From NCBI GenBank assembly GCA_040326155.1, contig JBEQLE010000023.1:1-48598 (forward strand): a stretch of 48,598 nt of DNA. The letters run 5' to 3'. Within the stretch, counting starts at the first letter, position 1. Every line of letters begins with the position of its first letter. The DNA comes from Leptospirales bacterium. GTDB lineage: Bacteria; Spirochaetota; Leptospiria; Turneriellales; JAOUFE01. Positions 15,383-48,598 of the stretch are shown here, in pieces. Under the pieces are notes generated by a model. It was given only the letters and a program-made list of their open reading frames with translations. It was not told the origin of the DNA and did not search any database. The translations under genes were made by a program, and so were the position numbers.

Positions 15383-15442
15383 TATACCATATCCGCTTTA
15401 AAGTTAAGTGTTAGGCAGATATATGAAATGAACGACCAGAGG

Positions 15443-28596: not shown

Positions 28597-28812
28597 AGAA
28601 TCGAGCATAGTTCGATCGTAAAAGGCATTGTCAAGATTCTAAAAAATAATCGCAATGTACACATTTCAGTTTAATAATATGAAACGAATGAATTCAAAAT
28701 GGTTCCACAATAGCAGACTCCGGGACCTTATATCTTTCCATGACACTAAATATAGTATTTATTAATTTATCTCATAATTCGCCTAATATTAGTTGCGCAA
28801 TAGCGGTTTGGA

Positions 28813-34028: not shown

Positions 34029-34446
34029 TCCGCTGAAGGCGGAGGGCTCCGGCCCGGTTGCGGTGTAGCTTTCCTTAAAAAAACTTCACCCGCAAGAAAA
34101 CGCCATCTTACAAACCCCGCCGTCGGCGATTCTATTTTAAAGTCTGAGCGCCACTCGGCAAACAGTTGTCCTCCCTCCGGTCGGCCTCGGCGATTCTGAG
34201 TTGCTCAAAGTGCAACACGAATTTCTAACCGCTCCTTCGCCCTGGGCGAGATTGAGGTATGCAGGCGGACCGCGTTGGGGAAATCCACCACTTTATGGTG
34301 GGGAAAAAACCAACCCGGCCCTGCCCTACTCTCTTCAGATCGGCAAATACCAGACCCCCATAATATCGTGGGGTTAAGCGTAGGCTCGCCCGCAGGGCAG
34401 CCGTAGCGGAAGGGGAGACTGTAAAAAGTCTGCGACGGAGGCTACT
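34029..34446. other. GC-rich non-coding hairpin cluster (REP/MITE-like mosaic or structured RNA)
   Basis: Many inverted repeats: TCCGC/GCGGA, CGCCG/CGGCG, GTTGC/GCAAC, TCGCCC/GGGCGA, CCACCA/TGGTGG nested in GTTGG/CCAAC and GCAGG/CCTGC, and ACCCC/GGGGT. TCGGCGATTCT occurs twice. Confidence 0.6.
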
Positions 34447-34500: not shown

Positions 34501-34583
34501 TTTAATATTTTTTATATTTTTTTATTATTTTTTTTGTATTTTATATATAAATACTTTACATACAACTTTGGTTCTGTTATTGT
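34501..34583 (+). promoter_or_regulatory. Putative sigma70 promoter for the downstream operon
   Basis: AT-rich UP-like tract, TTTACA (34555-34560), 17-nt spacer and extended -10 TGnTATTGT (34578-34583). SD GAGGAGG lies before ATG 34742. Confidence 0.5.
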
Positions 34584-34741
34584 CCCCACACTGAAGGATC
34601 GTTTCTTCGGTTAAAAAACATAGATAAGCGCGTATAAAATAAATAAATACAATCGTATTCCTATAACGCAAGATCAAACAGGGTTATGCGCTACGAAATA
34701 CATTCATGCGCACTGAATTTATTTGAGTCTGAGGAGGTTGT

Positions 34742-35908
34742 ATGGATTGGCGACACGAACCGATATGGGATCCCTATATAGGCAGTAGAGTAGTAGTTTT
34801 TTTCAACACTGTAAATTCTGGCGAGAAAATTGTTGAGCGCCTCGGAACCGTTACCGGCGGCCCTAACAAAATAATAGAACTTAGCCCGGAAGATGGCGCG
34901 TCAATTCTTGAGTACCGCAACTCCTTGCCCGATCAAGTTTTTACTGCGGCGAGTCAACTCGGCGATATAAAAAATATCGGCCCCGATCAGTTGTATCTGA
35001 TATTTACCGCCTTTCGTGAGCTTGAACTTGAGAATTCTCTTGAAGCCGAAATACTCGGTTTTTTAAATGCAGTCAATGACACGAACGAAATAGTCACTCG
35101 CATCTGGCTCGATCCAAAGTCCGCTAACGTTAAAGAGGAAGGCCATCGCCGCCTCTACCTGGATTATTTCTTTAAAACCACAGACTCTACCACGGGTAAA
35201 ACCGTAGACGCGGCTCCCGCAACCACCGCAATCAAAGCAGAACTTGCAAAAAACATTTTAACGGAACGCAATAAACTTACCGGTAAGCAATTTACGGTAT
35301 TTGAAGAGCTCCAGAAAGTAAGCAAACTGGGGGCTGTTGATTTTCATAACATCCTTTACAGTTTTGCGAAAATTCCGCTCAACTCTCCGGGCGACCTGGC
35401 CGCTCTCATCAAAACCGATACGTGGATAGCGTCGCTGCCCTCAGGTTTTACCGAACTCACCGATTTTACGCTCGCCGATATCGAAACGACCTGGGACGCC
35501 GCAACTTCGAGTTTTTCAAACGTGACGTTTGCTTTGCAAGGTCCGACGCCCTGGGAACTGACTTTGGGCGAGGCAACGAACCCAACGCCGATCTTGGACG
35601 ATGTTACGTTTTACTATACAATTCAAAATCCGGGTACGCCGGACGAGACGATTACCGCCGAGATGAAAACAGTCCACCTTGCAGGCGATGTCGAGGTTCC
35701 TTTGAGTGTTCCATTAGCTGGCGATACGGTGCCCGCTGAGACGGGGGACATCAGCTGGAATCTGGAGCAGCCGACTACGGTCGCTTCGTTGCAGGATGTG
35801 TCGGGGCTGTTTGATGTCGAGACTGCGTCGCTTTTGCCGGAGGGTTTGCTGAGTTTTAGCGGGGGTGTAGAGTTGCAAGCGTTGGATGTCAGCGTGGTGG
35901 ATGCGTGA
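34742..35908 (+). CDS. Hypothetical protein: two HhH (ComEA-like) repeats + acidic beta-module related to the downstream giant protein
   Basis: ASILEYRNSLPDQVFTAASQLGDIKNIGPD and AKNILTERNKLTGKQFTVFEELQKVSKLGAVD; the C-terminal part resembles modules of 39399-47390. Confidence 0.7.
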   Translation: MDWRHEPIWDPYIGSRVVVFFNTVNSGEKIVERLGTVTGGPNKIIELSPEDGASILEYRNSLPDQVFTAASQLGDIKNIGPDQLYLIFTAFRELELENSLEAEILGFLNAVNDTNEIVTRIWLDPKSANVKEEGHRRLYLDYFFKTTDSTTGKTVDAAPATTAIKAELAKNILTERNKLTGKQFTVFEELQKVSKLGAVDFHNILYSFAKIPLNSPGDLAALIKTDTWIASLPSGFTELTDFTLADIETTWDAATSSFSNVTFALQGPTPWELTLGEATNPTPILDDVTFYYTIQNPGTPDETITAEMKTVHLAGDVEVPLSVPLAGDTVPAETGDISWNLEQPTTVASLQDVSGLFDVETASLLPEGLLSFSGGVELQALDVSVVDA

Positions 35909-35938
35909 TGGAAATCACTAGAGGATTGAGGTAGGGTT

Positions 35939-38900
35939 ATGGCTGAGAAGAATAATATGGTGAAGGTAAAATTTCTGGTAAAGACGGCCGAATACAACCA
36001 AGGGTTGTTAAATGAAAAGCATGTTCCTATTCACTCCTATTTTTTGTATCTGTTTTGGAAACAAGATGATGAATACAAACTTTTTTTACAAACCGATGAT
36101 AAAAACAAAAAATTAAAAGTTGCGGGAAAACATATTCCGGTTGTAGCCAAACCCGACGTAGCCAATAGTGAACTTTGCGACTATCCGTTTGTAAGGAAAG
36201 AGACTTATTACGGCTGCTTTAGCGGGAAAGAGTTAGACGTCAACGCGCTGAAAACAATCGCAATGACTTCGCCAGAAAGGTTGATTCATATTTACCCAAC
36301 GGGATCAACGTACAAAATTGATCATTCTTTTTTTTATTGGCTGATGAAAGCGGCTGAGTTAGAATCGGATACAAAAACCAGCCATGAAAATATAAACCTC
36401 CTTCTTGAAACTCTGGAAAAGAAAACTGACGTGAATGAAGATGAAAAATGGATTATTGACAACCAATGGTGCACCCTGCCGAACAATCAGTGTTTAGATA
36501 TCAAAAGCGCTCTAACAACGATAAAAAATAAATTATCCAACCCATCGCAAACAATACAGGCAATCTTTGATTCCTCTTTAAATGAAACAATGGCCTGTTA
36601 TAAAACAATCGAGATTGCCCCCACTAGAAAAGCCTGTTCTAAAGATCAAAAATGGTCGGGCGCGATTAGAGAAGGTTTTTCGCATCACATATTAACGAGT
36701 AACCTACGGGCTCATTTGATTGCCCCGACGTTGTCCGATAAAAATACAGTAACAGGCGATTTACTTAAAAGTTTCAGTGACAACAACATATCCAACGATC
36801 TTACAAATCTCTTTTATAAAGACGAAAATAATTCTTCTATTGGTTACGGCAATGTAAATATACTCAACACTCTGACAAAAAGCGCTATACAACAATATGG
36901 AACAAATGATGCGCAATCCGACTCTTTGGATCTTAAACCGCTTGAAAGAAATATTTTTTCTTACGTTGATAGCGTAGCCGAAACAAACAGTTTTCAATAT
37001 GACTGGGACAGTTTTGATAATGCCAAGAGGAAAATACTATTTGAATTCGGTATTGATTTAAATTCTTATAGCAACTTTTTTATATCGTTGTTTCGAGACG
37101 CTCTTGAATGTTTTGAGCAAGCCACACTGCATCATGAAAAAACAGCAAATCGCAAATTCAATATATCCCCTTACAATGTCAAAATAAGCTATTCGGAAAC
37201 CGAAAAATCAGAGACTGGCGCTTATGAACTCATTAGCGCAAGCTCTGTATTGAATATTAAATCGATCATTGAGCATACTACTGAGAATACTACTCTTAAA
37301 AATTCAATTCTTTTTCTAGACGGATATACAAACCAGCATATTTTTGAAAAAAATGAATTTTCAATTCCAAAACAAAAAGAGGAATCTATTTCAGCATCGG
37401 AATTCACTGCCCAAACGCAAGTTGACGATACTGTAAAATTTATCGAACTCATTCCCTTTGATCAAAATCTAGTAACCTACAATTTTTTAAAAAATGAAAC
37501 GGGCAGAAAACGGCAAGATTCAACCATAGTCCCGATATCGGCATGGGAAAAACTCCGGGCAAAACTGGAAACTGAAAATTTTCCGATGTTAACAATGGAC
37601 GCTTTCAAACATATGCGCCTGACAGGCGCAAACCTGGCCATTCCAAAGTTTGAGAGATTTCAATCGTCTACCGGGCAATACGTTGCGCCCGATCTTCAAA
37701 GCGCGACAGACTGGGTCGGCAACCAGGGGGAAACGGGATTTTTTACAAAAAATACTATTAATAGTTTTTATGAAGATTTAAATAATCGGGAATGGAGAAA
37801 TCGAGCAGGAACTTGGCAAGGTTCCGGTAATCAAAATAATTTCCCAGTCTACGATGCGCTTGGTAAATTTGTCAGCAACAAACTGATTTCAATAAAAGCC
37901 TCTGGTGGCGGGGCGAGCGACAACCAGAACAAGCAGAGGGATGTGAGAAGGAGGTATTGGGAAACAGGTTTTAAAAAGACTTTTGGGGGACACAGTAATC
38001 CCAGGCATAAAAATTATAGAAATTTCAATAATGTCGCAATACAGCCAGACAATCTTAATACGAACAGAGCAGATGCAATTTATAGATCTTATTTAGCGAT
38101 TAACAGTGATGATGTAGCTTCCTTTCGAGAAAACCTTAAGAATTCCGCAGACGCAAATATCTTTAACAGACAGATATCCGGGGTAAACGACCTGGGTAAT
38201 AGGGCGGTAAAACACAAGCTCATGTACGAATTTTTCAATATTATTCTCGAAAAAGAAAATATTAAATTGAATGGCGTTCGTATCCCAACTCTAGAGGCTT
38301 TATTCGCACAACCTTCAGGTACGAACATCAATTCCGTTACCGAAAAATTAAAAACGATTTTAGCGAAACGAATCATCAGCAATGGCAGAACAAACGCCGA
38401 AGTTCGTAACAGTATTCATGCGAGAATTGGTACGGGGAGATTAGGACGTTTACAACCATACCAATACAACTACGTGACATCCGAGTATATTTATGTAAAA
38501 AGCCAGGCATCGACTATCAAAGCTTCTTTAAAATCTGCAGGAAGAAACGCAGCCTACGGATCCATTTTTACTACCATATTGAGTGGTCATAAACTATTGA
38601 CTAAAGATGGAGAAAACACCGGAGACGATTATTTAAAATTTGGTTCTGACATTGCGCTTGGCATCGTTGGCGACGCCGTATCATCGGCAGGCGAAACAGG
38701 AGTTCTTTCGCGCGGGCTTGTTCAAGGAACCGGGATTATAAAGACGTTTGGACGAACCGTCGGAAAATCTTTCACAAGTGGTTTAGCAGCGCCTATTGTG
38801 GAAGTCGGAACTATGTTGTTCGAAGATCATTATTTAAATACGAAAGATTATAGTTATACGGATTACTCCGCAAAAGGTACCAGAGCGGCCGTTGGAGGAA

Positions 38901-39364
38901 TTTTTGCAGCCGGCGCCGGCGCGGTCGGCACCTTAATTTTTCCCGGTATTGGGACTATAGCAGGTATGGCAATTGGTTATGGCGCCTATATGGTTTATGA
39001 ACTTCTGGCAGGGCAAGCCATTGAAGACGGCGTTCGCAGTGTATTAAGCGAAGAAACCGAACAACCATCGGTATCAGCAAAGAAAATGCCGCTCCAAAAT
39101 ATAGTTGGAAATGTAGACTATACTACTTTCAAGTATTTTCGAATTATCCATCAGAAATTTACCATAGAAGATAACATATTGGTACAACCGACAGGGACAT
39201 ACATTAGTATGATGTACCCGGAGAAAGACGATGAAGATGTTTATTTACAAGTAAAAGTCGTCAACACCCGGCAAAACGAGCTATTCGATAGCCTCGGCGA
39301 TACATTTCTTATTCCAACTACAAATCTTATGAAATCCAAATCACAGGTCGGGCCAATTGTTTAA
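35939..39364 (+). CDS. Putative polymorphic-toxin-like protein: unknown N-domain, REase-fold nuclease motif, Gly/Ala-rich membrane helices
   Basis: GNQGE...DLN...NFPVYD...ISIK, then AAVGGIFAAGAGAVGTLIFPGIGTIAGMAIGYGAY. The N-terminus is paralogous to 47465-48445. Confidence 0.6.
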   Translation: MAEKNNMVKVKFLVKTAEYNQGLLNEKHVPIHSYFLYLFWKQDDEYKLFLQTDDKNKKLKVAGKHIPVVAKPDVANSELCDYPFVRKETYYGCFSGKELDVNALKTIAMTSPERLIHIYPTGSTYKIDHSFFYWLMKAAELESDTKTSHENINLLLETLEKKTDVNEDEKWIIDNQWCTLPNNQCLDIKSALTTIKNKLSNPSQTIQAIFDSSLNETMACYKTIEIAPTRKACSKDQKWSGAIREGFSHHILTSNLRAHLIAPTLSDKNTVTGDLLKSFSDNNISNDLTNLFYKDENNSSIGYGNVNILNTLTKSAIQQYGTNDAQSDSLDLKPLERNIFSYVDSVAETNSFQYDWDSFDNAKRKILFEFGIDLNSYSNFFISLFRDALECFEQATLHHEKTANRKFNISPYNVKISYSETEKSETGAYELISASSVLNIKSIIEHTTENTTLKNSILFLDGYTNQHIFEKNEFSIPKQKEESISASEFTAQTQVDDTVKFIELIPFDQNLVTYNFLKNETGRKRQDSTIVPISAWEKLRAKLETENFPMLTMDAFKHMRLTGANLAIPKFERFQSSTGQYVAPDLQSATDWVGNQGETGFFTKNTINSFYEDLNNREWRNRAGTWQGSGNQNNFPVYDALGKFVSNKLISIKASGGGASDNQNKQRDVRRRYWETGFKKTFGGHSNPRHKNYRNFNNVAIQPDNLNTNRADAIYRSYLAINSDDVASFRENLKNSADANIFNRQISGVNDLGNRAVKHKLMYEFFNIILEKENIKLNGVRIPTLEALFAQPSGTNINSVTEKLKTILAKRIISNGRTNAEVRNSIHARIGTGRLGRLQPYQYNYVTSEYIYVKSQASTIKASLKSAGRNAAYGSIFTTILSGHKLLTKDGENTGDDYLKFGSDIALGIVGDAVSSAGETGVLSRGLVQGTGIIKTFGRTVGKSFTSGLAAPIVEVGTMLFEDHYLNTKDYSYTDYSAKGTRAAVGGIFAAGAGAVGTLIFPGIGTIAGMAIGYGAYMVYELLAGQAIEDGVRSVLSEETEQPSVSAKKMPLQNIVGNVDYTTFKYFRIIHQKFTIEDNILVQPTGTYISMMYPEKDDEDVYLQVKVVNTRQNELFDSLGDTFLIPTTNLMKSKSQVGPIV

Positions 39365-39398
39365 TCCAATATAATTAATAACAGGCAAAATAAAAATC

Positions 39399-42300
39399 AT
39401 GAAAACATTAACCACAAACAACCTCACCGCTCAACTCCAACAACCCATCACCGTCCTGATGGGTTTTCCCGAAGTAGTTGCGCTCAACATCGCGATTTCT
39501 CAAACCCCCGACGGACAATCGCTTCTTACCCTCTCCGGTGACATCGACCTCTTTGGAAACATCTGCCCATTCACTCTTACCTACGATAAAACCATCTGGC
39601 AATTTCAATTAACAATCGCACAAGGCATAACACTTCCTTTCAACACGGCGGATCTCAAAGAAATATTTGGCGGCGCAGAGCTGCTGGGAAATTTTCCCGC
39701 AACATCAGGCTTTGATACCATCGACGTTTCAGAACTAACGCTGGAGTTTAATCCCGATTCGATTTTTCCGTTGCCGATGACCGAACTAAACCATGTCGAA
39801 ATCGTGGCGGGGCTGCAAGACTGGAAAATCGTCGAAGCGATCAATCTATTTTTAACCAACATTCGACTCGACTTTGACCTGAGTTTTCAGAAAGTTGTAG
39901 ACGCGCTAGCCGATCCGTTGGCGCCGCAAAGCCCTTTAGAACTGACCAGTTTTTCAGGGGCAATCGAAGCGGGGGCGGCTATCATCAACAACGGCGTCAC
40001 CGAGCTTGAGCTGCCAACTTTTCGAGCCTATTTGCCCATCACAGACGAAGGGCTATTGATGGAGATGGTAAACGAGTTTTATGACATCCCCACGTTGCAA
40101 AACCTCAGCCCGCTTCTTGGTGGAACCGATTTAAGTCTTTATATTCCCCCGCAACTTCCTGCAATTCCTTCGTTGCAACTATCTGAATTTACTTTTAACC
40201 TCGATCGAGATTACACCGGTTTGAACTTTATGGACTTCACCCTTGGTTTCCCGCAGGGTTATGCCTGGGTGTTGATCGCAGGCAAACTGCAGCTGTCCGA
40301 TTTTAAACTCAACTTCGATTTTCCGGCACCGCGCCTTCGCTTAGGCGTTGCCATGGGTTTCGGAGATCTCGCCGCAGAGTTTGTCACACTACCCATGGTC
40401 GCCGATGTTGAATTTACCGAATCAAATCAATTTGAGAAATTGACCGTTGAACTCGGCTCCCTTGAAGGCACCCACGACCTGAATTATTCCGTAAGCTCTG
40501 CTCATATATCAGCCCTGGGCTTTGACATCAATTCCATGATTCCGGGCATCGACCAAAGTGAATTTCTCGTCGATCATTTTCTACTTGAGTTTGACGCCAA
40601 CATGAATCTTGTTCGCACGATGCTTTCGATCTCATACCCCGGAAGCCTCGATCTCATCGCGAATAAATTTTCGATCGTGAACCCCGACATCGAAGTTGAA
40701 GTTCACTTTAGCGCCCCCATAAAATACAACGGCATTTTAAAAGCCGACCTAACGATCGGAGCTGACCAGGCGACCTACATACCGATCGAGCTGAGCTTTG
40801 ACGACACCGACGAGTGGGTACTCTCACTCAATAACGATGACACTGGTGAAAATGTAGCCCTGCCGAGTATTACCTCGCTTGCATCTTTAATTGGCGACTC
40901 TACCTACTTCGACAGTCTTCCATCGAATTTCAACTTCGAAGGAATCGAACTTTCCGATTTCGAATTGCGCTTTCCTCATCCGGTAAATCAAAAGATCAAC
41001 CATCTGTTTTTTACTCTGGAGATGCCTGCGAGAATGACGATCATTCCTTCTTTAAGTGTGTCGAAACTCAAGTTTCACTTTGACGCCGATTTTACCATCG
41101 GGCCAACACTCGCAGATATGCAGGCGACGCTCCAACTGAACGGAGTCGTCACCCTGGCTCTTGGTCCAGAAACGGGCGATCTCGAAATTCCGCTGTTGAT
41201 CACTAAATCTCTCACCGAGTGGACCGTCGAATTTGACTTGATGCCCGGCGACACGGTTATCCTTCCTTTTTCTAAACTTCCTTTGTTGCTTGATAACGCT
41301 CCTATCAGCGACGTTTTACGCGAAGACCTGATTTTGACAGACGTCGAAGTCGAAAGGTTAGAGTTGAGGTTTCCCGTAACGTTTGATCGACTCGACTTTG
41401 CCTCCTTTAAAGGAAATGTCACCGCCTGGGAAGTTCTGCCTACCCTGCAATTGTCGCTTGTGAAGTTTGAAGTCGACATGAACATCCCGATGCCGCTCTC
41501 CCTGGAAACACTCTGGGGAACTTTCCAGGGGCAGACAAAAGTCGGTACTTTGTTGCTGCCGACACTACGCGGTACCCTACCCTACCAGGATTCAGGACTT
41601 GCCCTCGAAATGGTCGAAGGGGAATACCCTATACCGAGCCTCACACAAATGAAACCCTTGCTCGGAGGCTTTGATCTTTCGACGGTTTTACCCTCACAGT
41701 TCCCCGCCATCAGCTCTCTTTTATTAACACGATTTTTAGTACATTTTGACCCAGAATTCAGCGGTCTACACTACATGGCCTTTCGTTTGGTATTGCCACC
41801 CGCAACAAACCCTGATGGAACCCAAAGCGATAGCGCATGGGATCTCTTTCCACTGGTTCCCAACACTGTAATATTAAAGCAACTCGAATTCGATTTTACC
41901 TTTCCCGAACCCCACTTCAAATTGGCCGGTATAGTCGGGCTGGGCTCATCCGATGAATTCCCGATGACGGCCTCTTTCTCGATCGAAGATGGCAGTTTTT
42001 CAGGACTGATCTTTGAACTCGGTGCTCTAGATCAAAGTGACACTTGGAGTTACAAAATTGGCGGAGCCGATCTATCGCTGATGGGTTTTAACCTCACGAC
42101 GATGCTGCCCGGTTTAGATACATTGGTTCTGGCTCTCACCCGATTTCGGCTAGAGTTCGACAATGCGATGAGTTTGAAACAACTCTACTTTCAAGTTCAT
42201 TCAGAGGGTTCTTGGGATCTGATCGCCAATCGTCTCAGCATCACCAACCTCAGCGTTGATCTCACCATTGGCTTTCCATCACCATACGCTTTTGAAGGTT

Positions 42301-45300
42301 TTGTAGCAGCCGATTTCGATTTGCATTTAGATAGTGTTGAGAAATTCCCCATCTTACTGACGATCCCGAAAACGGGCGACTGGAGTCTGGCTTTGGATCT
42401 GCCAACACCAGACGACTCGGTCTCGTTTGCCGGTGTTACTGACCTTTCGGCCTTAGTTGGTTTAAACTTAGATACCTTTATGCCGCCGGGCTTGTCGATC
42501 AGTGCGTTTAACCTGACCGAATTGGCGATGCAGTTTCCTCATCCTTCAGAACAGAAAATCTCGACCGTATTTGTCGGAGCCAATATGCCCGACACCTGGC
42601 AGATTGTACCGAACCTGACGCTTGGCGATCTGAATCTTTATACTGAAATTGATTTCACCCAAACACCAGCGGAAGTCACATTTCAAGTGACGAGCGTTAT
42701 CGGCGTAGGGGCGGTAAAGATACCGCTTCTGATTTCCCGAGATCCGAGCCAATGGAAGTTCGGCTTAAACCCGGAATTCGAAACCGAGTTTTTTATCCCC
42801 TTTACAAAAATGACCGGTTGGTTGGGCACGCTGCTGCCATCACTGCCTTCCCCCATTTCAGGGGCCAACATTGCCCTGCGAGAACTGATGTTTACTTTTT
42901 CGGGTGACATGGCAAATTGGAAAAATTTTGAATGCAGGGGAAGTCTCGATTCTAGTTGGACGCCAGTAGCCTCGCTCACCAGTTTTAAAATCGATGAACT
43001 TGACTTTTACGTTCAAATCGACGCCACCCCGGCTGAACCGGTTTTAACCCTGGAAGTAACCGGGGTCATTATTCTGGGGGAAATTCGTGTACCGATCAAG
43101 ATCGTCAAAACGACCACCGAGTGGATCTTTTCGTTAAATCTTGCCCCCGGTTCTGATATAGAAAGTGTAGCTTTGCCGTTTAGTCAACTCGAAGAGTGGT
43201 TTGGTCAAAACCTGATTGCTCTTCCGACGGTTCTTACCATCGGCGATGTAGGAATTTCCGCACTGGAGATTATCTTTTCATCGAATATGAGAATATGGAA
43301 AAGTTTCTCCTGTGATGTTTCTCTCAACAAAACCTGGATGCTCACCGATACCTTCGGTTTAACGATCAAACGCTTTACGCTCGATATGGAGTTTCCGTTG
43401 AACGCAACCAAGCGCAAAATTGTGGCGGCGATGCATTGTAATATCCTGGCAGATTCTCAGACTTTCGGGGTGATCGTTGCCATCGATACGCTCAACGAAA
43501 AATGGAATCTCACTCTGGTTCCTGAACAAAATATTGTGATCAGCGCACTCGGTCCGTTAAGCCATATTTTTAATATCGCGACCCTGACCACCCAGATGAT
43601 GCCGATGGAAGTTGCGCTTGGGGATATCCACCTCGAAAGTCTGTCGGTTACCCTCGACTTCGATTTTAATATTCTCGGCATGCTTTTGACTGGCACGCTC
43701 GATAAAGGGCAGATCAAAGTCACCCTGCCGATGCTCGAAGTCTCCGACGAGGAAGACCAGAAGAGTCTGACGGCTTCGGCGACGGTGAACGATCTAAAAC
43801 TTTCCCAGGCCGAGAATCTGGATATTATTTTGACATCCAATGTCACGTTAGCTGTAACCGGTCTGCCGACTATTTTACAAAACGCTCTTCCAACCGATGT
43901 AGATGCGATAGTAACGGCGTCAAAGACCGAAGCCAGCGTCACCGTAAACAACACACAATCTTTTACACTGCCCCAAATCAAATTTGCCAACCAACGGGTG
44001 AACATTAAAGGAGAGTTTAAAGGAATTAAATTTACCTATGCCGTAGGCGGACCCGAAATCTCTACCGATGTGACCTTCTTTCTGGTACACGAGGGCACAC
44101 ATCAGCTCAATGAGATGATGCCGGTCGACCTGCTCAACGATGAAGTACATTTTCGCCTGAGTATCAATCAGGTAGACAAAGCTAAAATTGCCCTTACCGA
44201 ATGGCCCTTCAAGTTGCCGACAGTCAAAAAACTCAAAAGAGAAGGTTGGATACTTTTCGACTTTGGAGATGCCGGGGCGGTTACACTGAATCTGCCAACG
44301 TTCAGCCATAATGGCACGAGTTTTAAAGCTAATGGCCAGGTGAAATTCCCGGAAGACGGCGACAGTATCATCACTTTAAAAGATCCGGTGGGCGACGCAG
44401 CGCCTGTCGAAGAGACCTACATCGCAAAAGCGCTTGGTATTCCCTTAGGATTTATTAAAAAGTTTCTTGCGCAATCAGGATTGTCGTTTATCGGAGATAT
44501 GCTGCCCGATTCGATTCCGCTTGATCCGGACTTGGCAACGGTTCTCCCCGGCCTTACCGGCAGCACAACCGGATTGCCAACTGCCTTCGATAGTTACAAA
44601 GAGATCACAAACCCTCGGGCTTTTGACTTTTATATTGAGACCGTTTCGGGCGGTTCTGTGAGATTCGACTTTGCCACGACCGCAGATGAAAACGGCGTCA
44701 GAGAGCCGATGAAAGTACTCTTAAAAGACCCACTCGGCGTCACCATTATGCTAGGCGTGCAGGTCTCCAGAATTGCCATCGGTGAAACAGGCGGGGTCAT
44801 GACTTTCGATTTTGACGCACGAGTTGACATCTTTTTTGCGCCGCTTATTTTGGCGATGCAAAATATGCCGAACTTGAGCATACCGTTGCTGCCAGATTTT
44901 AAAGATGTACATTTAACTTTCATTGCTGACAAAGTGTTTGGAGTCATCGCAGGGTGGCCCATACCGATTTTCTTTAACGAGTTGAGCGTGAGCTATCTCG
45001 GGGTCGAAGGGCTGGAGCTTAAAACCGTCTGGAAAAATCCGATGCCCGGTCATGGTATCAATGAGATCATTAAAGTGGCCGCGCTTTTACCGCAGTTTGC
45101 CAAATTTGCTTTCAACCCGACTTATCTATTGCCAACCGACCCGACCGATCCCGAGTACCCCGACCTGGGCGACGCGCAGCTTGATTTTAGAATTGAAGAT
45201 TTGTACTTAAAAACTCCGGAGTATCTCGGCGGCGTTGTTCTGGGTCATCAATATACAGACGATAACCCGTTAATTGAGTTGCATAATACCGAAGTATTCA

Positions 45301-47390
45301 ATCTGTTAAACGCTTCGAAAATGCCCACGCCTGCAAATCTCTTGAAAGTGATTCCATCCAGCAAAAGATCAGGCTCTGGCGACATTTCGTTTGGTCCCAT
45401 TGCTTCAAATTTCGCATGGGCCATTAGTAATCCGGGGGAATTTTTAGCAGGCTATAGTGGTCCACTGCCCAGTGAGAGTCTGCTCGTTCTTTTCGGCGAC
45501 TCTGATGAAACACAACCAACGGACGATGAAAAAAGCATAATCGTCATTGAAGGCCACTGGGGCATCGGAAATATCATCAGCTCCGATGTTATGTTTGCCA
45601 TGCAGGTGGGTGGATTTGATGGGATGGCCCTCGGTATCGCCGCTAGAGGAAGCATTGCCAATGATTTTCTCGGTTTCGACATTGCGGGAAGCATGATGTT
45701 TGATATTCCGGGTAAATCTTTTGCGCTCGATGCGTTTTTAGCTCTGAAACTGCTCGGCACGGATGTTGCCACTCTTACCGTTGGCTTGAGCGAAGAGGAG
45801 TTTTCACTTGCAGGAACCGTAGAACTCTTTAACAACCCGATTATCCAAGCCGAGGGAACCCTCACCGGTACGATTAAGAGTACCGGCGCTTTCTCGATTA
45901 CGGGTAATATTGACGCATCCGGTGGACTTCTCTCACTCGGGGGGCCTGAGGTAGATATTTCAGCGACTCTTTCGAACAGCGGCGCTACGTTGACCGGGGA
46001 CTTTACGATTATCGATATCGCGCTCTTGCGCTTGAAAGGAACGATCGACATTTCTCTGAGTAGTCAAGGGCAACTTGCTCTCTCCGGAACGGTAGAAACT
46101 GGCGGTGGAATTTTTGCCATGAGCGAGATTAGCATCGAAGGAAATTCCGATCTTGCCGCTACGGTCAGTACGCCCCCGAGCTTGATTCCTTTTCAAAATA
46201 TTAAAATCAAAGCTGAATTTAGCGTTCTGGATACGCCCTTTATCAAGTTAGGCGGCAGTAAACTTACCGCCACGCTGACCGATACCTCCCTCGATTTCGA
46301 AGCGCTGATTTCGGGGCCGCAGGGCTTTATCGGTTTTTCCGATGAAGGCGAGAACCAGATGAAAATCACGGGTACCGATATCGGTACGAGCGATAGCAAA
46401 CTCAGCATCGCCGGTGATTTTGGCATCAATACGCCCCTTTTGAAAATCGGGTGCCACATATCTGGTACGATCAACTCTACTTTTAATCTTGATGTTACGG
46501 GAACGATCACCTCCTCAATAGGGGGATTTGACCTGACAGGGGATAACACCTCGGTCTCTCTGACTGAAGATTCGTTATCTATTACGGCAGAGTGGCTTGG
46601 GTCTGAGTTTACGTTAGATGCGGAAATTGATGGGACAAATATCAACCTCAAAGGGACGGCGATGTTCACCATACCGTTTCCGGCCCCCTGGAAAATCCCC
46701 AACCCGCTACCTGGCGGCGATGACCTCGATTTAGAAAAGCTCTTCGGGCTCGATATTTCTATAAGCGCCGGAGTAGCGGTAGAGTTCAGCAATACCTCCT
46801 ATTCGGCGGGGGCAGCGCTCACCTGTACTTTCTGTGGCGTCGACTTTACAATTGACGCTAACCTCGATATCGATCTGAGTGAAATGAACTCCTTAGACGA
46901 TCTGAAAGATGTCATCATAGAATTTGCAAAGAGCTCTCTGAGCCTCGCCAGTTTTTTCACCGACTCGATCTGGTGGGCTCAAGATTTAATCAAAGCGGTG
47001 AAATACTCTTTCGAGAATTCACTACAGGAGAACACACCGACCAACTTCACCCTGATCAAAACCTCCCTCTTTGAAATTGGGTGTGACATTAGCAGCAGCG
47101 ACGGCTCCTCCCTCACGGTAGATGTGAACGTCTCGGCGGGCGGTTTCTTGCAACTTCCCGATGCGCCCAAAGTAACCTTCGGCTGGACTGAAGTCACCAT
47201 AGAGTTAGAGTTCGATTCCAACAAAACATTACCCCCGCCGGGAATGCCTTTTTCGCTGGAGGGCGACACCACCATAACCATCGGCACATCGGGCTTTGAA
47301 CTCAGCGGTGAAATGGAAGTCAAACTCCTGGGCGAAACCATCTTCAAGGGCGCCGTCGGAAGCAGCAATTTACTGGGGAATCTGGTTTAG
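39399..47390 (+). CDS. Giant (2663 aa) acidic beta-repeat protein of unknown function (repeating beta-groove-like)
   Basis: Uninterrupted 8-kb ORF with alternating hydrophobic beta-strand patterning, ~125-130-aa modules and a ~520-aa duplication. No evident signal peptide. Confidence 0.85.
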   Translation: MKTLTTNNLTAQLQQPITVLMGFPEVVALNIAISQTPDGQSLLTLSGDIDLFGNICPFTLTYDKTIWQFQLTIAQGITLPFNTADLKEIFGGAELLGNFPATSGFDTIDVSELTLEFNPDSIFPLPMTELNHVEIVAGLQDWKIVEAINLFLTNIRLDFDLSFQKVVDALADPLAPQSPLELTSFSGAIEAGAAIINNGVTELELPTFRAYLPITDEGLLMEMVNEFYDIPTLQNLSPLLGGTDLSLYIPPQLPAIPSLQLSEFTFNLDRDYTGLNFMDFTLGFPQGYAWVLIAGKLQLSDFKLNFDFPAPRLRLGVAMGFGDLAAEFVTLPMVADVEFTESNQFEKLTVELGSLEGTHDLNYSVSSAHISALGFDINSMIPGIDQSEFLVDHFLLEFDANMNLVRTMLSISYPGSLDLIANKFSIVNPDIEVEVHFSAPIKYNGILKADLTIGADQATYIPIELSFDDTDEWVLSLNNDDTGENVALPSITSLASLIGDSTYFDSLPSNFNFEGIELSDFELRFPHPVNQKINHLFFTLEMPARMTIIPSLSVSKLKFHFDADFTIGPTLADMQATLQLNGVVTLALGPETGDLEIPLLITKSLTEWTVEFDLMPGDTVILPFSKLPLLLDNAPISDVLREDLILTDVEVERLELRFPVTFDRLDFASFKGNVTAWEVLPTLQLSLVKFEVDMNIPMPLSLETLWGTFQGQTKVGTLLLPTLRGTLPYQDSGLALEMVEGEYPIPSLTQMKPLLGGFDLSTVLPSQFPAISSLLLTRFLVHFDPEFSGLHYMAFRLVLPPATNPDGTQSDSAWDLFPLVPNTVILKQLEFDFTFPEPHFKLAGIVGLGSSDEFPMTASFSIEDGSFSGLIFELGALDQSDTWSYKIGGADLSLMGFNLTTMLPGLDTLVLALTRFRLEFDNAMSLKQLYFQVHSEGSWDLIANRLSITNLSVDLTIGFPSPYAFEGFVAADFDLHLDSVEKFPILLTIPKTGDWSLALDLPTPDDSVSFAGVTDLSALVGLNLDTFMPPGLSISAFNLTELAMQFPHPSEQKISTVFVGANMPDTWQIVPNLTLGDLNLYTEIDFTQTPAEVTFQVTSVIGVGAVKIPLLISRDPSQWKFGLNPEFETEFFIPFTKMTGWLGTLLPSLPSPISGANIALRELMFTFSGDMANWKNFECRGSLDSSWTPVASLTSFKIDELDFYVQIDATPAEPVLTLEVTGVIILGEIRVPIKIVKTTTEWIFSLNLAPGSDIESVALPFSQLEEWFGQNLIALPTVLTIGDVGISALEIIFSSNMRIWKSFSCDVSLNKTWMLTDTFGLTIKRFTLDMEFPLNATKRKIVAAMHCNILADSQTFGVIVAIDTLNEKWNLTLVPEQNIVISALGPLSHIFNIATLTTQMMPMEVALGDIHLESLSVTLDFDFNILGMLLTGTLDKGQIKVTLPMLEVSDEEDQKSLTASATVNDLKLSQAENLDIILTSNVTLAVTGLPTILQNALPTDVDAIVTASKTEASVTVNNTQSFTLPQIKFANQRVNIKGEFKGIKFTYAVGGPEISTDVTFFLVHEGTHQLNEMMPVDLLNDEVHFRLSINQVDKAKIALTEWPFKLPTVKKLKREGWILFDFGDAGAVTLNLPTFSHNGTSFKANGQVKFPEDGDSIITLKDPVGDAAPVEETYIAKALGIPLGFIKKFLAQSGLSFIGDMLPDSIPLDPDLATVLPGLTGSTTGLPTAFDSYKEITNPRAFDFYIETVSGGSVRFDFATTADENGVREPMKVLLKDPLGVTIMLGVQVSRIAIGETGGVMTFDFDARVDIFFAPLILAMQNMPNLSIPLLPDFKDVHLTFIADKVFGVIAGWPIPIFFNELSVSYLGVEGLELKTVWKNPMPGHGINEIIKVAALLPQFAKFAFNPTYLLPTDPTDPEYPDLGDAQLDFRIEDLYLKTPEYLGGVVLGHQYTDDNPLIELHNTEVFNLLNASKMPTPANLLKVIPSSKRSGSGDISFGPIASNFAWAISNPGEFLAGYSGPLPSESLLVLFGDSDETQPTDDEKSIIVIEGHWGIGNIISSDVMFAMQVGGFDGMALGIAARGSIANDFLGFDIAGSMMFDIPGKSFALDAFLALKLLGTDVATLTVGLSEEEFSLAGTVELFNNPIIQAEGTLTGTIKSTGAFSITGNIDASGGLLSLGGPEVDISATLSNSGATLTGDFTIIDIALLRLKGTIDISLSSQGQLALSGTVETGGGIFAMSEISIEGNSDLAATVSTPPSLIPFQNIKIKAEFSVLDTPFIKLGGSKLTATLTDTSLDFEALISGPQGFIGFSDEGENQMKITGTDIGTSDSKLSIAGDFGINTPLLKIGCHISGTINSTFNLDVTGTITSSIGGFDLTGDNTSVSLTEDSLSITAEWLGSEFTLDAEIDGTNINLKGTAMFTIPFPAPWKIPNPLPGGDDLDLEKLFGLDISISAGVAVEFSNTSYSAGAALTCTFCGVDFTIDANLDIDLSEMNSLDDLKDVIIEFAKSSLSLASFFTDSIWWAQDLIKAVKYSFENSLQENTPTNFTLIKTSLFEIGCDISSSDGSSLTVDVNVSAGGFLQLPDAPKVTFGWTEVTIELEFDSNKTLPPPGMPFSLEGDTTITIGTSGFELSGEMEVKLLGETIFKGAVGSSNLLGNLV

Positions 47391-47464
47391 AGGAGAGCGG
47401 GGAAAAATTATGAAAACTATTAAATTGAGACCATCAAACTTCGCTACCATAAAAAGAGGTAACC

Positions 47465-48445
47465 ATGCCGACATCAACTGATACTACAAACACGTCAGTC
47501 ACGAAAGTGAAGCTGCCGCTTGATCGTGTCTTCTGCCAGTTTGAGTGTTATCAGCAAACTGAGAAGACAGACGCTAATGGAAAGACGTCGCAAGTTTTTG
47601 ATTACAAGCCGGTGGATTCTTATAAGCTCTATCTGTTTTATAAAAAGAACGACCAGTTTTTTCGCATGCCCGGCAACACCCCTCCTGCTGAGCCGATTGT
47701 GACCGCAGATGACCATGCCGAATACATCATTTCGGATAAAGATGTTACCGAAAAAAAGTGCAACTACGCTTTTAAGAAAGGCGCGACTTACTATGGGTAT
47801 TTTGCGGGGAAAGAACTGACGGAGGCTGAGATTACGGGGTTGATGGGTGAGCGGAGTTATGTGTTGTTGAAGATAGTTCCATCTGACAGCGGTGTGTTGA
47901 GATTGGATTTTTCATTGTTTCAATATATAGTTTTATTGCAACAACTTGAAGACGGATTAACCGGTGATGTAGCCTTGACAAAAATAAACACCGTTTACAA
48001 ATCAAATTTCAGTTCTTTGACTTCCGACATAGAAAAACAACTCTACAAAAATGATTTTATGATTGCAACAAATAATGAACCCATTCAAATGAGCCGTTTC
48101 TTTGAAGCTTTATCGGCTCAAAAAAAAGGAGAAGTACCTGTATGGGAGAAGTCTCTGGCAGACGTAGTAACGAATGCTATAACTTTTCATGAAGATCCCA
48201 ATGCGACAGCTACAAACAAGCTTTTGTCCTTTGAGAATGCCTTGCAAAAAATTACGGATCAGCAATACCCCAAGGGTATTTTAGAAAGTCATGTGTTAGG
48301 AGCAACACTGGGAAAAGTAGTACCGCCTCCCGGCACTCCTTATTCTTTTACCTACTCGATAGAAGAGTTTTTTTATCAGAGTAATTTTTCTGAACTTACA
48401 AAGAATTATATAGAAAATTTTTATATCGAGGTTTCTAATGTCTGA
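47465..48445 (+). CDS. Hypothetical protein, stand-alone paralogue of the N-terminal region of 35939-39364
   Basis: SD AGAGGT. PVDSYKLYLFYK...CNYAFKKGATYYGYFAGKEL aligns with PIHSYFLYLFWK...CDYPFVRKETYYGCFSGKEL. Confidence 0.8.
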   Translation: MPTSTDTTNTSVTKVKLPLDRVFCQFECYQQTEKTDANGKTSQVFDYKPVDSYKLYLFYKKNDQFFRMPGNTPPAEPIVTADDHAEYIISDKDVTEKKCNYAFKKGATYYGYFAGKELTEAEITGLMGERSYVLLKIVPSDSGVLRLDFSLFQYIVLLQQLEDGLTGDVALTKINTVYKSNFSSLTSDIEKQLYKNDFMIATNNEPIQMSRFFEALSAQKKGEVPVWEKSLADVVTNAITFHEDPNATATNKLLSFENALQKITDQQYPKGILESHVLGATLGKVVPPPGTPYSFTYSIEEFFYQSNFSELTKNYIENFYIEVSNV

Positions 48446-48598
48446 TAAAAAAACGATAGGCACTAATAAAATAAAAAAAACATTCTTAAAAAAGGCTAGT
48501 AACATAAGTCAAAAGAAAATTAAATTTAATCAAACTACTTCAAAGAATAAAGATAGTCGAGAATACACTTATTATATAGTTACAGATGGAACACAAAG
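48438..48598 (+). CDS. Hypothetical Lys-rich ORF start, truncated by window end
   Basis: GAGG SD and an ATG overlapping the previous stop by 8 nt. The frame is open to the edge: MSDKKTIGTNKIKKTFLKK...YYIVTDGTQ. Confidence 0.55.
   Translation, partial: MSDKKTIGTNKIKKTFLKKASNISQKKIKFNQTTSKNKDSREYTYYIVTDGTQ

Follow-up and report, generated by a model that had tools for sequence, protein, structure and literature searches.

VasX of Vibrio cholerae and its relatives are T6SS effectors that disrupt membranes. Polymorphic toxins (CDI, Rhs and Tc) combine a conserved N-terminal with a divergent C-terminal part and use giant beta-rich carriers, and radical-SAM/SPASM maturases (the anaerobic sulfatase-maturating enzyme, DynA, YhhB and AmcB) are encoded beside their substrates. 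In eCIS (Afp/PVC-like), fibres can carry an intramolecular-chaperone domain. Toxins of these systems are marked by the conserved N-terminal domain DUF4157 (PMC8213781). Here, we analyse a stretch of 48,598 nucleotides from a Leptospirales bacterium (assembly GCA_040326155.1, contig JBEQLE010000023.1; the window), at the end of which a preliminary description had placed a candidate toxin-delivery operon. The locus is a real nine-gene cassette (genes 1 to 9) around a giant all-beta protein, and none of the described secretion or defence systems fits it.

The nine genes are co-directional on one strand, cover about 24 kb and are separated by 30, 34, 74, -8, 93, 12, 57 and 227 nt; the tight spacing and terminal overlap earlier reported for the five + strand ORFs of the window are borne out (Table 1). 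The unit, described as having at least five ORFs, does run past position 48598: the window (contig C87) ends within gene 5, its last 20 bases are the first 20 of contig C141, this 20-nt link is the sole one among 342 contig ends, and the reading frame of gene 5 continues across it. Two copies of a direct repeat of about 150 nt, before gene 1 and after gene 9, bracket the cassette; long copies are confined to these two in the genome, where partial copies of 60-74 nt lie on contigs C149 and C105, and no Rfam family matched the repeat. A GAGGAGG Shine-Dalgarno-like motif stands immediately 5' of the gene 1 ATG. The single promoter-like site once seen ahead of the operon is given no weight, since such matches occur there about as often as by chance (27 versus 22.6 +/- 5.4 in shuffles).

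Table 1. Features of the cassette and its borders (window positions unless stated otherwise)
Feature	Position	Strand	Remarks
Direct repeat (~150 nt), upstream copy	34272..34420	+	80% identity over 150 nt with second copy
AT-rich stretch, weak candidate promoter	34555..34640	+	two sigma-70-like matches; upstream of gene 1
Gene 1, 388 aa	34742..35908	+	head with helix-hairpin-helix (aa 164-203); one giant-family beta-module (aa ~232-369)
Gene 2, 1141 aa	35939..39364	+	shared N-domain, divergent body, glycine-zipper hydrophobic region
Gene 2 N-domain (aa 1-265)	35939..36733	+	common to gene 4
Gene 2 glycine-zipper hydrophobic segment (aa 983-1012)	38885..38974	+	conserved in P0004
Gene 3, 2663 aa	39399..47390	+	giant all-beta protein
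Gene 3 repeat region (aa ~123-1420)	39765..43658	+	~520-aa duplication of ~125-aa beta-modules
Gene 3 family-defining conserved core (aa 1600-2100)	44196..45698	+	signature motif at 44958-45010
Gene 3 C-terminal amphipathic beta-meander	45699..47387	+	internal repeats aa 2116-2420
Gene 4, 326 aa	47465..48445	+	N-domain as in gene 2; C-terminal half without assignment
Gene 5, start	48438..48598	+	8-nt overlap with gene 4; 3'-open; continues on C141 (L059 1-939); 359 aa total
Direct repeat, second copy	L059 10190-10334 (contig C141)		directly after gene 9

Gene 3 belongs to an undescribed, widespread family of giant, signal-less, all-beta proteins, which comprises 205 representative clusters (50% identity) at E<=1e-3 from many phyla and is conserved over residues ~1580-2080 of gene 3. 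Among 57 motif-selected loci in named genomes, 51 hold a family member, and these include Cyanobacteria, Myxococcota, Bacteroidota, Chloroflexota and Gemmatimonadota. The core of about 500 aa has no match in Pfam, NCBIfam or the PDB; its confident model (pLDDT 87.4) is all-beta with very long amphipathic strands, and fold searches with it found no known fold. Its top, though weak, structural neighbours are beta-sheet lipid carriers and envelope bridges (the ApoB100 beta-belt, lipovitellin/vitellogenin, LPD-3/BLTP1, LptD and TamB) and outer-membrane barrels. The carriers and bridges resemble the giant in being very long and made almost wholly of long antiparallel strands, but the matches are at background level (core Z below 8; TM 0.05-0.15; ApoB100 with a Foldseek probability of 0.90 but a TM of 0.12), there is no sequence similarity, and the giant has neither an N-terminal membrane anchor nor an AsmA, DUF490 or Chorein match in Pfam. 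The C-terminal region can be superposed on the TamA barrel sheet (VIA-align 2 Z 12.4, rmsd 3.1, 133 aligned), a generic match, and the ‘beta-groove’ architecture first suggested was not borne out, the fold searches having returned generic curved beta-sheets only. Laminin_G_3 repeats were found in 8 of 22 family members scanned.

By alignment, genes 1 and 6 are the counterparts of N- and C-terminal extensions of the giant in its closest long relatives: residues 17-275 of gene 1 match the N-terminus of the 3257-aa relative P0007 (9-247, E 1.3e-16), and gene 6 matches P0007 2620-3211 (E 8.6e-46) and P0005 4651-5342 (E 2.1e-46). In relatives both form part of the giant itself, which makes gene 1, and also gene 6 beyond the window, pieces of the scaffold architecture and supports the earlier view of the genes as one unit around a giant beta scaffold. 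The beta-module said to be common to genes 1 and 3 is weak in direct comparison (BLASTP E 0.06) and was confirmed through P0007, whose residues 1572-1704 match gene 1 232-369 and are homologous to gene 3 modules (residues 902-1115). An HMM of the module, made from 14 gene-3-type examples and tested on genes 1, 2 and 4 and on 2000 shuffles of gene 1, gave gene 1 a score of 12.1 bits, which ranked second by whole sequence and first by best single domain. The helix-hairpin-helix of the head was recognized as HHH_3 (E 4.7e-6; 27.1 bits, the cut-off being 27). Complex prediction weakly supports a pairing of gene 1 with residues 1-600 of gene 3 (0.58 versus 0.15 for the best of three controls), a mark that was attained by 51 of the 78 solved complexes and by 2 of the 108 mismatches, with only 5 of the 78 solved complexes but all 4 passing mismatches at <=0.60; contact agreement between runs was at least 88% and partner pLDDT at least 59.

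Gene 7 follows gene 6 and encodes an enzyme of the radical-SAM/SPASM type, to which a partner domain is fused. It resembles known maturases in its visible CxxxCxxC motif and Radical_SAM domain (E 6.5e-16), in aligning with them over ~345 residues (nearest solved structure: the anaerobic sulfatase-maturating enzyme, E 1.6e-12) and in its place beside a presumed protein substrate. It differs from them in that its nearest named families, all protein or peptide maturases, are below every curated cut-off (best 98 versus 349 bits), that a partner domain of ~200 aa without assignment is fused to the enzyme or comes next, and that the presumed substrate has 2-5 thousand residues and is not a short peptide or sulfatase. 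In L030, L038, L044, L052 and L055, the gene immediately downstream of the giant matches the N-terminal half of gene 7 (E 1e-138 to 5e-151); the C-terminal half has its match in the gene after that one or, in L052, in a C-terminal part fused to the first match (E ~1e-29 to 1e-34). This partner, present in 5 of 51 other loci, is the only neighbour of the giant family conserved across phyla. Of five other family-bearing genomes, four gave no match to it (E<=1e-20), and in the fifth it adjoins a different large beta-rich ORF. Synteny in distant loci, proposed as a check on the operon, was found for the radical-SAM partner but not for genes 1, 2 and 4, homologues of which are absent from all 51, so that the cargo idea rests on the present locus and a few metagenomic proteins.

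The N-terminal domain that genes 2 and 4 were said to share was confirmed by BLASTP (28% identity over 114 aa, E 6e-12), and phmmer extends the homology to residues 47-282 of gene 4 and 28-265 of gene 2 (E 2.4e-13). Gene 2 has one homologue, P0004, in 5.8 billion clusters, with ~83% identity in the N-domain and ~25-30% in the remainder. This retention of the N-domain beside a diverged body supports the proposal that a shared N-terminal domain marks cargo, such a mosaic being what would be expected of a docking or cargo-marker domain. For gene 4, four homologues were found (49-66% identity), and synteny of genes 3 and 4 elsewhere rests on a single coincidence, one of these homologues and a gene 3 homologue both being listed with a longest contig of 22,492 bp. 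Of the segments first described in gene 2, the membrane helix stands as the glycine-zipper segment, whereas the nuclease-like part has no library or PDB-sequence match. Gene 2 is a candidate membrane-acting toxin. Like VasX-type effectors, which it approaches in size, it has no signal peptide and a C-terminal glycine-rich hydrophobic region. Of the 30 ESM Atlas clusters nearest to it, 29 have VasX_N (score 0.91), a language-model lead only, with 154 of 256 features in common versus ~170 typical of true family members. In contrast to VasX-type effectors, its N-domain is a different, orphan domain; the genome, searched down to E<=10, has no match to the Pfam VasX_N model and, although 94.7% complete, yielded neither TssC nor PAAR. 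The Pfam hits of the cassette include no DUF4123-type adaptor, and none of its genes was recognized as an immunity gene.

Gene 8 is trimeric-fibre-like, with YadA_head repeats (E 2.9e-46) and a Peptidase_G2 intramolecular-chaperone domain (E 4.7e-20), and gene 9 encodes a membrane-anchored TPR protein with an N-terminal hydrophobic signal or anchor. As originally noted, all five window ORFs are devoid of a hydrophobic N-terminus and match no secretion-system family in Pfam, NCBIfam, PADLOC or PHROGs. No signal peptide was seen in genes 1-8, a crude hydropathy test detected a signal-like N-terminus in none of 127 full-length members of the giant family, and the family shows no lipobox, sorting signal or anchor. 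Pfam/NCBIfam-type library scans revealed no secretion machinery in the cassette, inspection of the downstream contig revealed no eCIS, T6SS, Tc or CDI part in genes 1-9, and no described system accounts for the ORFs. The cassette recalls polymorphic toxins in its giant beta-rich protein and in the conserved N-terminal and divergent C-terminal parts of gene 2 and its homologue; unlike them, it has no TPS, haemagglutinin, RHS/YD, SpvB, TcA or TcB domain and no partner outer-membrane transporter. A toxin-like payload with an N-terminal marker and a chaperone-bearing fibre also recall eCIS, but the marker of genes 2 and 4 is not DUF4157 and the cassette has no sheath, tube, spike, baseplate, terminator or ATPase gene.

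Our preferred reading, held tentatively and at less than even confidence, is a self-contained, non-contractile apparatus in which a scaffold carries and presents a toxin. The products of genes 1, 3 and 6 would assemble into one long amphipathic beta-sheet scaffold, which gene 7 would modify after translation; the shared N-domain would dock gene 2, as a membrane-permeabilising effector, and gene 4 (with gene 5) onto it; gene 8 would give binding to the target surface; and the apparatus would leave the cell by a route outside the cassette, through lysis or an unknown exporter. We count for the scaffold the tight one-strand unit, the direct repeat, the family itself, the fusions of genes 1 and 6 and the radical-SAM link, and for the cargo the mosaic of gene 2, its VasX_N Atlas neighbours and its glycine-zipper segment. 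Hints of an extracellular role come from gene 8, the gene 9 anchor and Laminin_G_3 in relatives. Also in favour, the gene directly upstream of the giant in other phyla is often effector-like (PLD-like, metallo-beta-lactamase-like or DUF4135 proteins, or eCIS_core/DUF4157 proteins in five distant loci), and in one locus a TIR-domain gene is found directly downstream. Against export stand the missing signal peptides, here and family-wide, and secretion machinery; against the scaffold reading as a whole, the missing immunity gene, the nature of the VasX lead, the presence of the radical-SAM partner in 5 of 51 loci only, and a census of 115 further neighbours of the giant, which are mostly unrelated housekeeping genes.

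The surroundings would fit defence just as well: a gene for type IIG restriction-modification lies, like an AbiLi/AbiLii pair, 4-9 kb away, and a MazE-like gene and an integrase adjoin the cassette. An intracellular conflict system (anti-phage or abortive-infection) is a rather unlikely rival, in which a cytoplasmic giant would sense or scaffold and, on infection, release or activate the membrane-disrupting gene 2 product, with TIR, PLD or metallo-beta-lactamase-type effectors in other clades and the radical-SAM enzyme making or modifying a signal or the scaffold. In its favour are the family-wide lack of signal peptides and the concentration of the family in lineages with many conflict systems; TIR (ThsB-like), PLD, HEPN and Fic proteins are among the neighbours at other loci, and the helix-hairpin-helix in the heads of gene 1 and P0007 could bind DNA. 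However, PADLOC models match none of genes 1-4, which the scan covered, most family loci lie outside recognisable defence islands, and the gene 8 fibre, gene 9 and the Laminin_G_3 repeats seen in relatives are unusual among defence proteins of the cytoplasm.

That the giant is instead a radical-SAM-matured structural or lipid-handling protein of the envelope or surface (an adhesin, sheath or beta-sheet lipid carrier), with genes 2, 4 and 5 accessory or unrelated insertions and no toxin delivered, we regard as unlikely. The long amphipathic strands, the fold neighbours named above, the Laminin_G_3 repeats and the adhesin-like gene 8 point this way, as does an ABC exporter gene that adjoins the giant in two Calothrix loci (L027 and L053) and whose cluster has members in 7 of 51 loci; yet the fold matches are all at background level, the family has no signal peptide, lipobox, sorting signal or anchor, and the mosaic N-domain pattern of gene 2 is left unexplained.

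It is improbable that the cassette is an accessory module supplying cargo and a fibre to the genome's own contractile injection system or tailocin, with gene 8 as alternative tail fibre and genes 2-5 as payloads. Genes 1-9 contain no DUF4157 domain and have no known physical linkage to contig C48 or C83, the 10 kb around each of the 51 family loci are free of sheath, tube and baseplate homologues, and known tube-loaded cargo is far smaller than a 2663-aa beta protein. In favour of this rival, DUF4157 proteins are the direct upstream neighbours of the giant in the five distant loci mentioned; the genome does hold an eCIS fragment on C48 (Pvc16_N, sheath and gp19-type tube), 12 ORFs with an eCIS_core/DUF4157 domain and, on C83, a cluster resembling a myovirus tail, and the gene 8 chaperone domain shares 40% identity with its counterparts in the two C83 fibres and 48% with a fragment from the end of C145, a contig with three DUF4157 ORFs.

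The five ORFs (g1 to g5) at the end of the window lie where the preliminary description had placed them, all on the forward strand and tightly spaced: gaps of 30, 34 and 74 nt separate g1 to g4, and g5 overlaps g4 by 8 nt. None has a hydrophobic N-terminus. The description had spoken of 'at least five' ORFs; five are real, and the unit extends past the window to nine genes. The window is the entire contig C87, 1 of 171 contigs in a 4.26-Mb assembly, and the 20 bases at its end recur unchanged at the start of contig C141, the sole end-to-start link of this kind among 342 contig ends. The g5 reading frame runs stop-free from C87 into a 5'-open ORF of C141, where g6 to g9 follow on the same strand. 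A ~150-nt, GC-rich direct repeat (80% identity between the copies) is found upstream of g1 and just past g9, with a terminator-like hairpin at the end of the second copy. Because the repeats bracket g1 to g9 and the frame continues onto C141, these genes form a discrete cassette of nine genes over about 24 kb. The promoter-like site that had been proposed upstream is not supported, as promoter-like matches are at chance level (27 versus 22.6 +/- 5.4 in shuffles). Elsewhere in the genome the repeat has just two partial copies of 60-74 nt, one of them near a second MazE-like gene, and it has no match in Rfam; an att-like site, a mobile-element end and a structured RNA are all conceivable. Reading the flanking copies as attL/attR was set aside as no more than a possibility, the integrase lying outside the repeats and the partial copies elsewhere. 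A GC island was not accepted: the cassette has ~47% GC versus a genome mean of 39.6%, yet 233 two-kb windows reach at least 45%, which makes the anomaly modest. Paralogues of g1 to g8 were not found in the genome, with the exception of the g8 chaperone domain.

Coordinates of the cassette genes and other features (window positions unless a locus or contig is named; L059 is the cassette locus on C141, G000 the genome of the window)
Feature	Position	Strand	Remark
g1	34742-35908	+	388 aa
g2	35939-39364	+	1141 aa
g3	39399-47390	+	2663 aa
g4	47465-48445	+	326 aa
g5	48438-48598, runs off end	+	359 aa in all, including C141 part
g6	L059 1033-3645	same as g1-g5	870 aa
g7	L059 3658-5661	same as g1-g5	667 aa; 12 nt after g6
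g8	L059 5719-8280	same as g1-g5	853 aa
g9	L059 8508-10172	same as g1-g5	554 aa
Direct repeat, first copy	34272-34420
Direct repeat, second copy	L059 10190-10334
Partial repeat copy	G000:C149 70884-70957
Partial repeat copy	G000:C105 32479-32548
Proline-rich core motif of g3	44958-45010
CRISPR-DR6 match	47917-47942	-	inside g4
Signalling stretch	1114-24545
TPR-CHAT protein	18089-21853	-	1254 aa
Ankyrin-repeat protein	23163-24545		460 aa
Defence patch	25280-30853	-
MazE-like ORF and HgcA gene	L059 10553-12002	same as g1-g5
XerC/D-like integrase	C141 12602-13546	same as g1-g5
eCIS fragment	G000:C48 1-4293 (L065)
Myovirus-tail-like cluster	G000:C83 94750-118033 (L063, L064)
Cohnella radical-SAM locus	L076 (G044:C5) 12041-18998

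The giant protein g3 is composed of three regions: ~125-aa beta-modules, including a ~520-aa duplication, a core and C-terminal amphipathic repeats. The gene is present in none of 40 related genomes, and a word-indexed search of 5.8 billion clusters returned one homologue, P0002 (2632 aa, 62% identity). With g3 aa 880-2079 as query against 1.84 billion representatives, HMMER gave 205 proteins at E<=1e-3, 147 at 1e-10 and 20 at 1e-30, nearly all 205 matches being confined to g3 ~1580-2080, a ~500-aa core with a strongly conserved proline-rich motif. Scanned over ~186,000 species, one genome each, a degenerate DNA version of this motif led to 57 loci, 51 of which encode a giant-family member; among these 51 are Calothrix, Nostoc, Leptolyngbya, Archangium, Polyangium, Pyxidicoccus, Pedobacter, Mucilaginibacter, Lewinellaceae, Ktedonobacterales, Gemmatimonadota, Desulfobacteraceae, Cohnella and others. 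The family that the core defines spans hundreds of sequence clusters from cyanobacteria, myxobacteria, Bacteroidota, Chloroflexota and further phyla. No member was found in IMG/VR viral contigs (searched with the family motif) or PLSDB plasmids (tblastn with the core), and in metagenome contigs the subfamily motif and the alignment of the g4 family gave no match. By a crude hydropathy criterion, a signal-peptide-like N-terminus is seen in 0 of 127 full-length members. Among 22 members scanned with Pfam, no family falls on the core, eight have Laminin_G_3 repeats C-terminal of it, and one, P0007, has an N-terminal HHH_3.

An AlphaFold2 model of g3 aa 1180-2300 (pLDDT 71.9) is made nearly entirely of long antiparallel strands. 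Foldseek returned low TM scores only (ApoB100, with probability 0.90 and TM 0.12, LptD, LPD-3, teneurin and propellers), and VIA-align 2 matched the C-terminal meander alone, to outer-membrane barrel sheets such as that of TamA (Z 12.4, rmsd 3.1, 133 aligned residues); since these are generic beta-sheet or barrel types, a fold assignment from the g3 models was rejected. A core-only model (aa 1600-2100, 47-row alignment) reached pLDDT 87.4 and pTM 0.78. Foldseek gave nothing for it at E<=1e-3, and a full scan of 48,161 chains gave no match at Z>=8; the highest score, Z 7.9 across 84 residues, is background by the tool's calibration. We take this to mean that no solved structure is recognisably related to the core, and the fold class that we would claim is 'large curved antiparallel beta-sheets' and nothing beyond. 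In the ESM Atlas, g3 aa 1400-2663 fell among unnamed clusters, apart from a weak lead to DUF6603 (0.82) that was discarded, being unsupported by the Pfam scans of the 22 members. PDB sequence searches with g1, g2, g3, g5 and g6, and also with a 50-sequence profile, gave nothing or coiled-coil noise.

Judged by their alignments, the closest long relatives carry a g1-like head, a g3-like body and a g6-like tail in one chain; in the cassette, head, body and tail are three ORFs with g2, g4 and g5 interposed. The beta-module that g1 had been said to share with g3 is weak when the two are compared directly (BLASTP E 0.06) and is confirmed through an intermediate, the 3257-aa P0007. A profile of 14 g3-type modules scores g1 12.1 bits and, in a comparison with g2, g4 and 2000 g1 shuffles, ranks it second on whole-sequence score and first on best single domain. 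Residues 17-275 of g1 match P0007 9-247 (E 1.3e-16), and g1 232-369 matches P0007 1572-1704 and P0016 244-375, both of which are homologous to g3 modules. At the other end, g6 aligns with C-terminal stretches of P0007 (2620-3211, E 8.6e-46) and P0005 (4651-5342, E 2.1e-46) and with further family tails, several in number, and its residues 25-155 are paralogous to g3 2347-2476. That g1 and g6 match parts of single-chain relatives is Rosetta-stone evidence that g1, g3 and g6 belong together. Weak support comes from a predicted complex of g1 with g3 aa 1-600, which scored 0.58 versus 0.15 for the best of three controls; 51 of 78 solved complexes reach the mark for this score, as do 2 of 108 mismatches; at scores of 0.60 or below, just 5 of the 78 reach it, together with all 4 of the passing mismatches. 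Between the runs, 88% or more of the contacts agree, and partner pLDDT is at least 59.

The sole neighbourhood conserved across phyla is that of the giant and a g7-like enzyme. g7 has a CxxxCxxC motif in its first 20 residues, matches Radical_SAM (PF04055; E 6.5e-16, 59.4 bits versus a cut-off of 29.5) and Fer4_12, and can be aligned along ~345 residues to protein and peptide maturases of the SPASM type (anaerobic sulfatase maturase, DynA, YhhB, AmcB), the nearest solved chain being an anaerobic sulfatase-maturating enzyme (E 1.6e-12). It belongs to no named equivalog (anSME, DynA, YhhB, AmcB, others), with 54 of 54 NCBIfam matches below cut-off (best TIGR03942, 98.2 versus 349.45 bits). At 5 of the 51 other loci, namely L030, L038 and L044 (Chloroflexota), L055 (Leptolyngbya) and L052 (Desulfobacteraceae), the giant is directly followed by a gene that matches the g7 N-half (E 1e-138 to 5e-151), and the C-half is matched by the next gene or, at L052, by the fused C-terminal part of the same gene (E ~1e-29 to 1e-34). 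In four of five other family-bearing genomes no g7-like gene was found at E<=1e-20. Because a g7-like gene stands next to the giant across phyla, the enzyme would most naturally be taken to act on the giant and modify it. If confirmed, radical-SAM modification of a giant structural protein would, to our knowledge, have no precedent, and none was found in the literature either. A conserved small ORF was considered as substrate and rejected, none being common to the loci. The g7-like gene of Cohnella, also a fused radical-SAM gene (54% identity), comes after two ORFs, one of 1388 aa (signal-less and beta-rich) and one of 240 aa. The larger ORF escapes the core and module profiles, but its N-terminus is similar to those of giant-family members, and it may represent a further, more distant kind of substrate.

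The genes interposed between the pieces of the giant are client-like. The N-domain homology reported between g2 and g4 was borne out (BLASTP 28% identity over 114 aa, E 6e-12; phmmer ~235 residues, E 2.4e-13), as was the membrane segment of g2, a glycine-zipper hydrophobic stretch at aa 983-1012; the 'nuclease-like' part of g2 found no support in Pfam, NCBIfam, PADLOC, PHROGs or PDB sequences. Two client-like proteins share a strongly conserved N-domain, one of them (g2) with a segment of membrane-insertion type. The one homologue of g2, P0004 (1174 aa), is ~83% identical over residues 1-135 and ~25-30% over the remainder, and has a glycine-zipper hydrophobic region near its C-terminus as well. 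Mosaics of this type occur in polymorphic toxins, and also where a conserved partner constrains one domain. Of the polymorphic-toxin pattern (conserved N-terminal part, variable C-terminal toxin, adjacent immunity gene), mosaic conservation was seen in the sole available pair, g2 and P0004, and no immunity candidate was identified. In the ESM Atlas, 29 of the 30 clusters nearest to g2 carry VasX_N (score 0.91, 154 of 256 features shared), which by the tool's guidance is a lead only. g4 has four homologues (49-66% identity), one of which, P0155, is listed, like the g3 homologue P0002, on a single contig of 22,492 bp, which suggests that the g3-g4 linkage may be conserved. At the 51 distant loci no homologue of g1, g2 or g4 occurs. 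For g5, Pfam, NCBIfam and PDB sequences gave no match. A weak, single-copy Rfam match to CRISPR-DR6 inside g4 (26.3 bits versus a gathering threshold of 39, E 0.073) is most likely due to chance.

The five ORFs g1 to g5 match no family in Pfam, NCBIfam, PADLOC or PHROGs, a borderline HHH_3 in g1 (aa 164-203, E 4.7e-6, 27.1 bits versus a cut-off of 27) being the sole exception. As had been proposed, no described system accounts for them, and the same holds for the genes downstream: Pfam and NCBIfam find no contractile-system, T6SS, Tc or two-partner-secretion part in g1 to g9. In contrast to eCIS/Afp/PVC systems, the cassette lacks sheath, tube, spike, gp25/Baseplate_J, Pvc16 terminator and AAA ATPase genes. 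Such genes are found on C48, a 4.3-kb contig broken at both ends with an eCIS fragment (Pvc16_N tail terminator, CarboxypepD_reg protein, 494-aa sheath, gp19-type tube), and in a myovirus-tail-like cluster on C83 (sheath, tube, spike OB domain, gp25-like sheath initiator, Baseplate_J), which also encodes two ~1000-aa fibres with Peptidase_S74/G2 chaperone domains 40% identical to that of g8. A type I restriction-modification system follows the C83 cluster. DUF4157/eCIS_core, described in PMC8213781 as a marker of eCIS toxins, is absent from g1-g5 at E<=0.1 and from g5-g9 at E<=0.01; the genome's 12 matches (ORFs of 384-1724 aa, E 2e-30 to 3e-23) are on C77, C145 (three), C92, C14 (two), C3, C86, C90, C16 and C142 and form a large arsenal of putative eCIS payloads, several of them in higher-GC patches. 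As for T6SS, VasX_N (PF20249) is not found in g2 at E<=0.1 or anywhere in the genome at E<=10, and TssC/VipB (PF05943) and PAAR (PF05488) are not found at E<=0.01 in a genome that is 94.66% complete, so that their absence is not proven. The TcA domains (VRP1, TcdA) and TcB/TcC domains (SpvB, RHS/YD repeats) of Tc/Rhs toxins are lacking in g1 to g9 (Pfam, NCBIfam), teneurin YD shells appearing as weak Foldseek rows only (TM 0.05-0.08), and so are the TPS domain, haemagglutinin repeats and CdiB/POTRA transporter of CDI and two-partner secretion. No part of g1 to g6 can be assigned to a described family, nor the whole cassette to a described system; the novelty lies in the protein family and the cassette architecture. 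No description of the giant family was found in the literature searched; its members could conceivably be among the accessory genes tabulated in eCIS papers.

Everything about the function of the cassette is inferred. Given its seven matches to YadA-head repeats (E 2.9e-46) and its intramolecular-chaperone domain of the Peptidase_G2 type (E 4.7e-20), g8 would form a trimeric fibre of the phage-tail or adhesin kind; g9, a TPR protein, has a hydrophobic anchor at its N-terminus. Because of this fibre, the anchored TPR protein, the lectin-type domains of relatives and the mosaic g2 with its VasX-like features, we tentatively favour a non-contractile, toxin-carrying scaffold, as a possibility rather than a probability. 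An intracellular defence system is somewhat unlikely; it would fit the complete lack of signal peptides, the restriction-modification, AbiL and MazE genes nearby, including a patch upstream of the cassette with a type IIG restriction-methyltransferase (PADLOC E 4e-217) and an AbiLi/AbiLii (AAA_21 + RloB) pair, and the TIR, PLD and HEPN neighbours of family members elsewhere, but g1 to g4 have no significant match to PADLOC anti-phage systems (best E 0.034). Direct neighbours of giants also include metallo-beta-lactamase-like, DUF4135 and ABC-exporter proteins besides the PLD-like and TIR ones, and 115 further neighbours are mostly unrelated housekeeping genes. That the giant is a structural or lipid-handling envelope protein is unlikely. 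In a comparison with AsmA/TamB-like and bridge-like lipid-transfer proteins, which have an N-terminal membrane anchor and a continuous beta-groove, no anchor and no AsmA/DUF490/Chorein_N Pfam match were seen, and the structural matches to LPD-3 and LptD do not rise above background. An accessory module of the contractile systems of the same genome is very improbable. A DUF4157 protein does lie directly upstream of the giant at five distant loci (Polyangium twice, Archangium, a Pseudomonadota MAG, Longimicrobiaceae), but homologues of sheath, tube or baseplate are missing within 10 kb of each of the 51 family loci.

Beyond the toxin-carrying scaffold, the giant family could stand for a new class of protein machine, a joint reading of several steps that we consider quite improbable as a whole. 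The giant would be a radical-SAM-matured, multi-thousand-residue amphipathic beta-sheet carrier working without a contractile or membrane-embedded secretion apparatus; a dedicated N-domain would dock client proteins on it; the carrier would then act as a counterpart, for proteins, of the beta-sheet lipid carriers and insert a pore-forming client into a target membrane; and one core would be re-used in at least six phyla with clade-specific clients (DUF4157 proteins, PLD, TIR). The family, which has no Pfam or NCBIfam model, no solved relative and a confident predicted structure matching no known fold, could mean a new toxin-carrying mode, a new defence type or a new envelope structure, and its size, its spread and its dedicated, highly conserved radical-SAM partner in several phyla point to unexplored biology. 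The cassette is the most informative member found, as its architecture, split into pieces and interleaved with client-like genes, offers experimental handles.

On the far side of the defence patch, the window encodes several hybrid histidine kinases, two adenylate/guanylate cyclases (one with CHASE2), a TPR-CHAT protein and an ankyrin-repeat protein. Beyond g9, C141 continues on the same strand with a MazE-like ORF, an HgcA-type corrinoid protein, a XerC/D-like integrase, rpsF, ssb and rplI. The MazE-like ORF overlaps the start of the gene that scores as HgcA, the mercury-methylation corrinoid protein (NF040863, E 2.6e-117, 391.6 bits versus a cut-off of 275); this gene stands just outside the cassette, beside the integrase, and is followed by a possible HgcB ORF.
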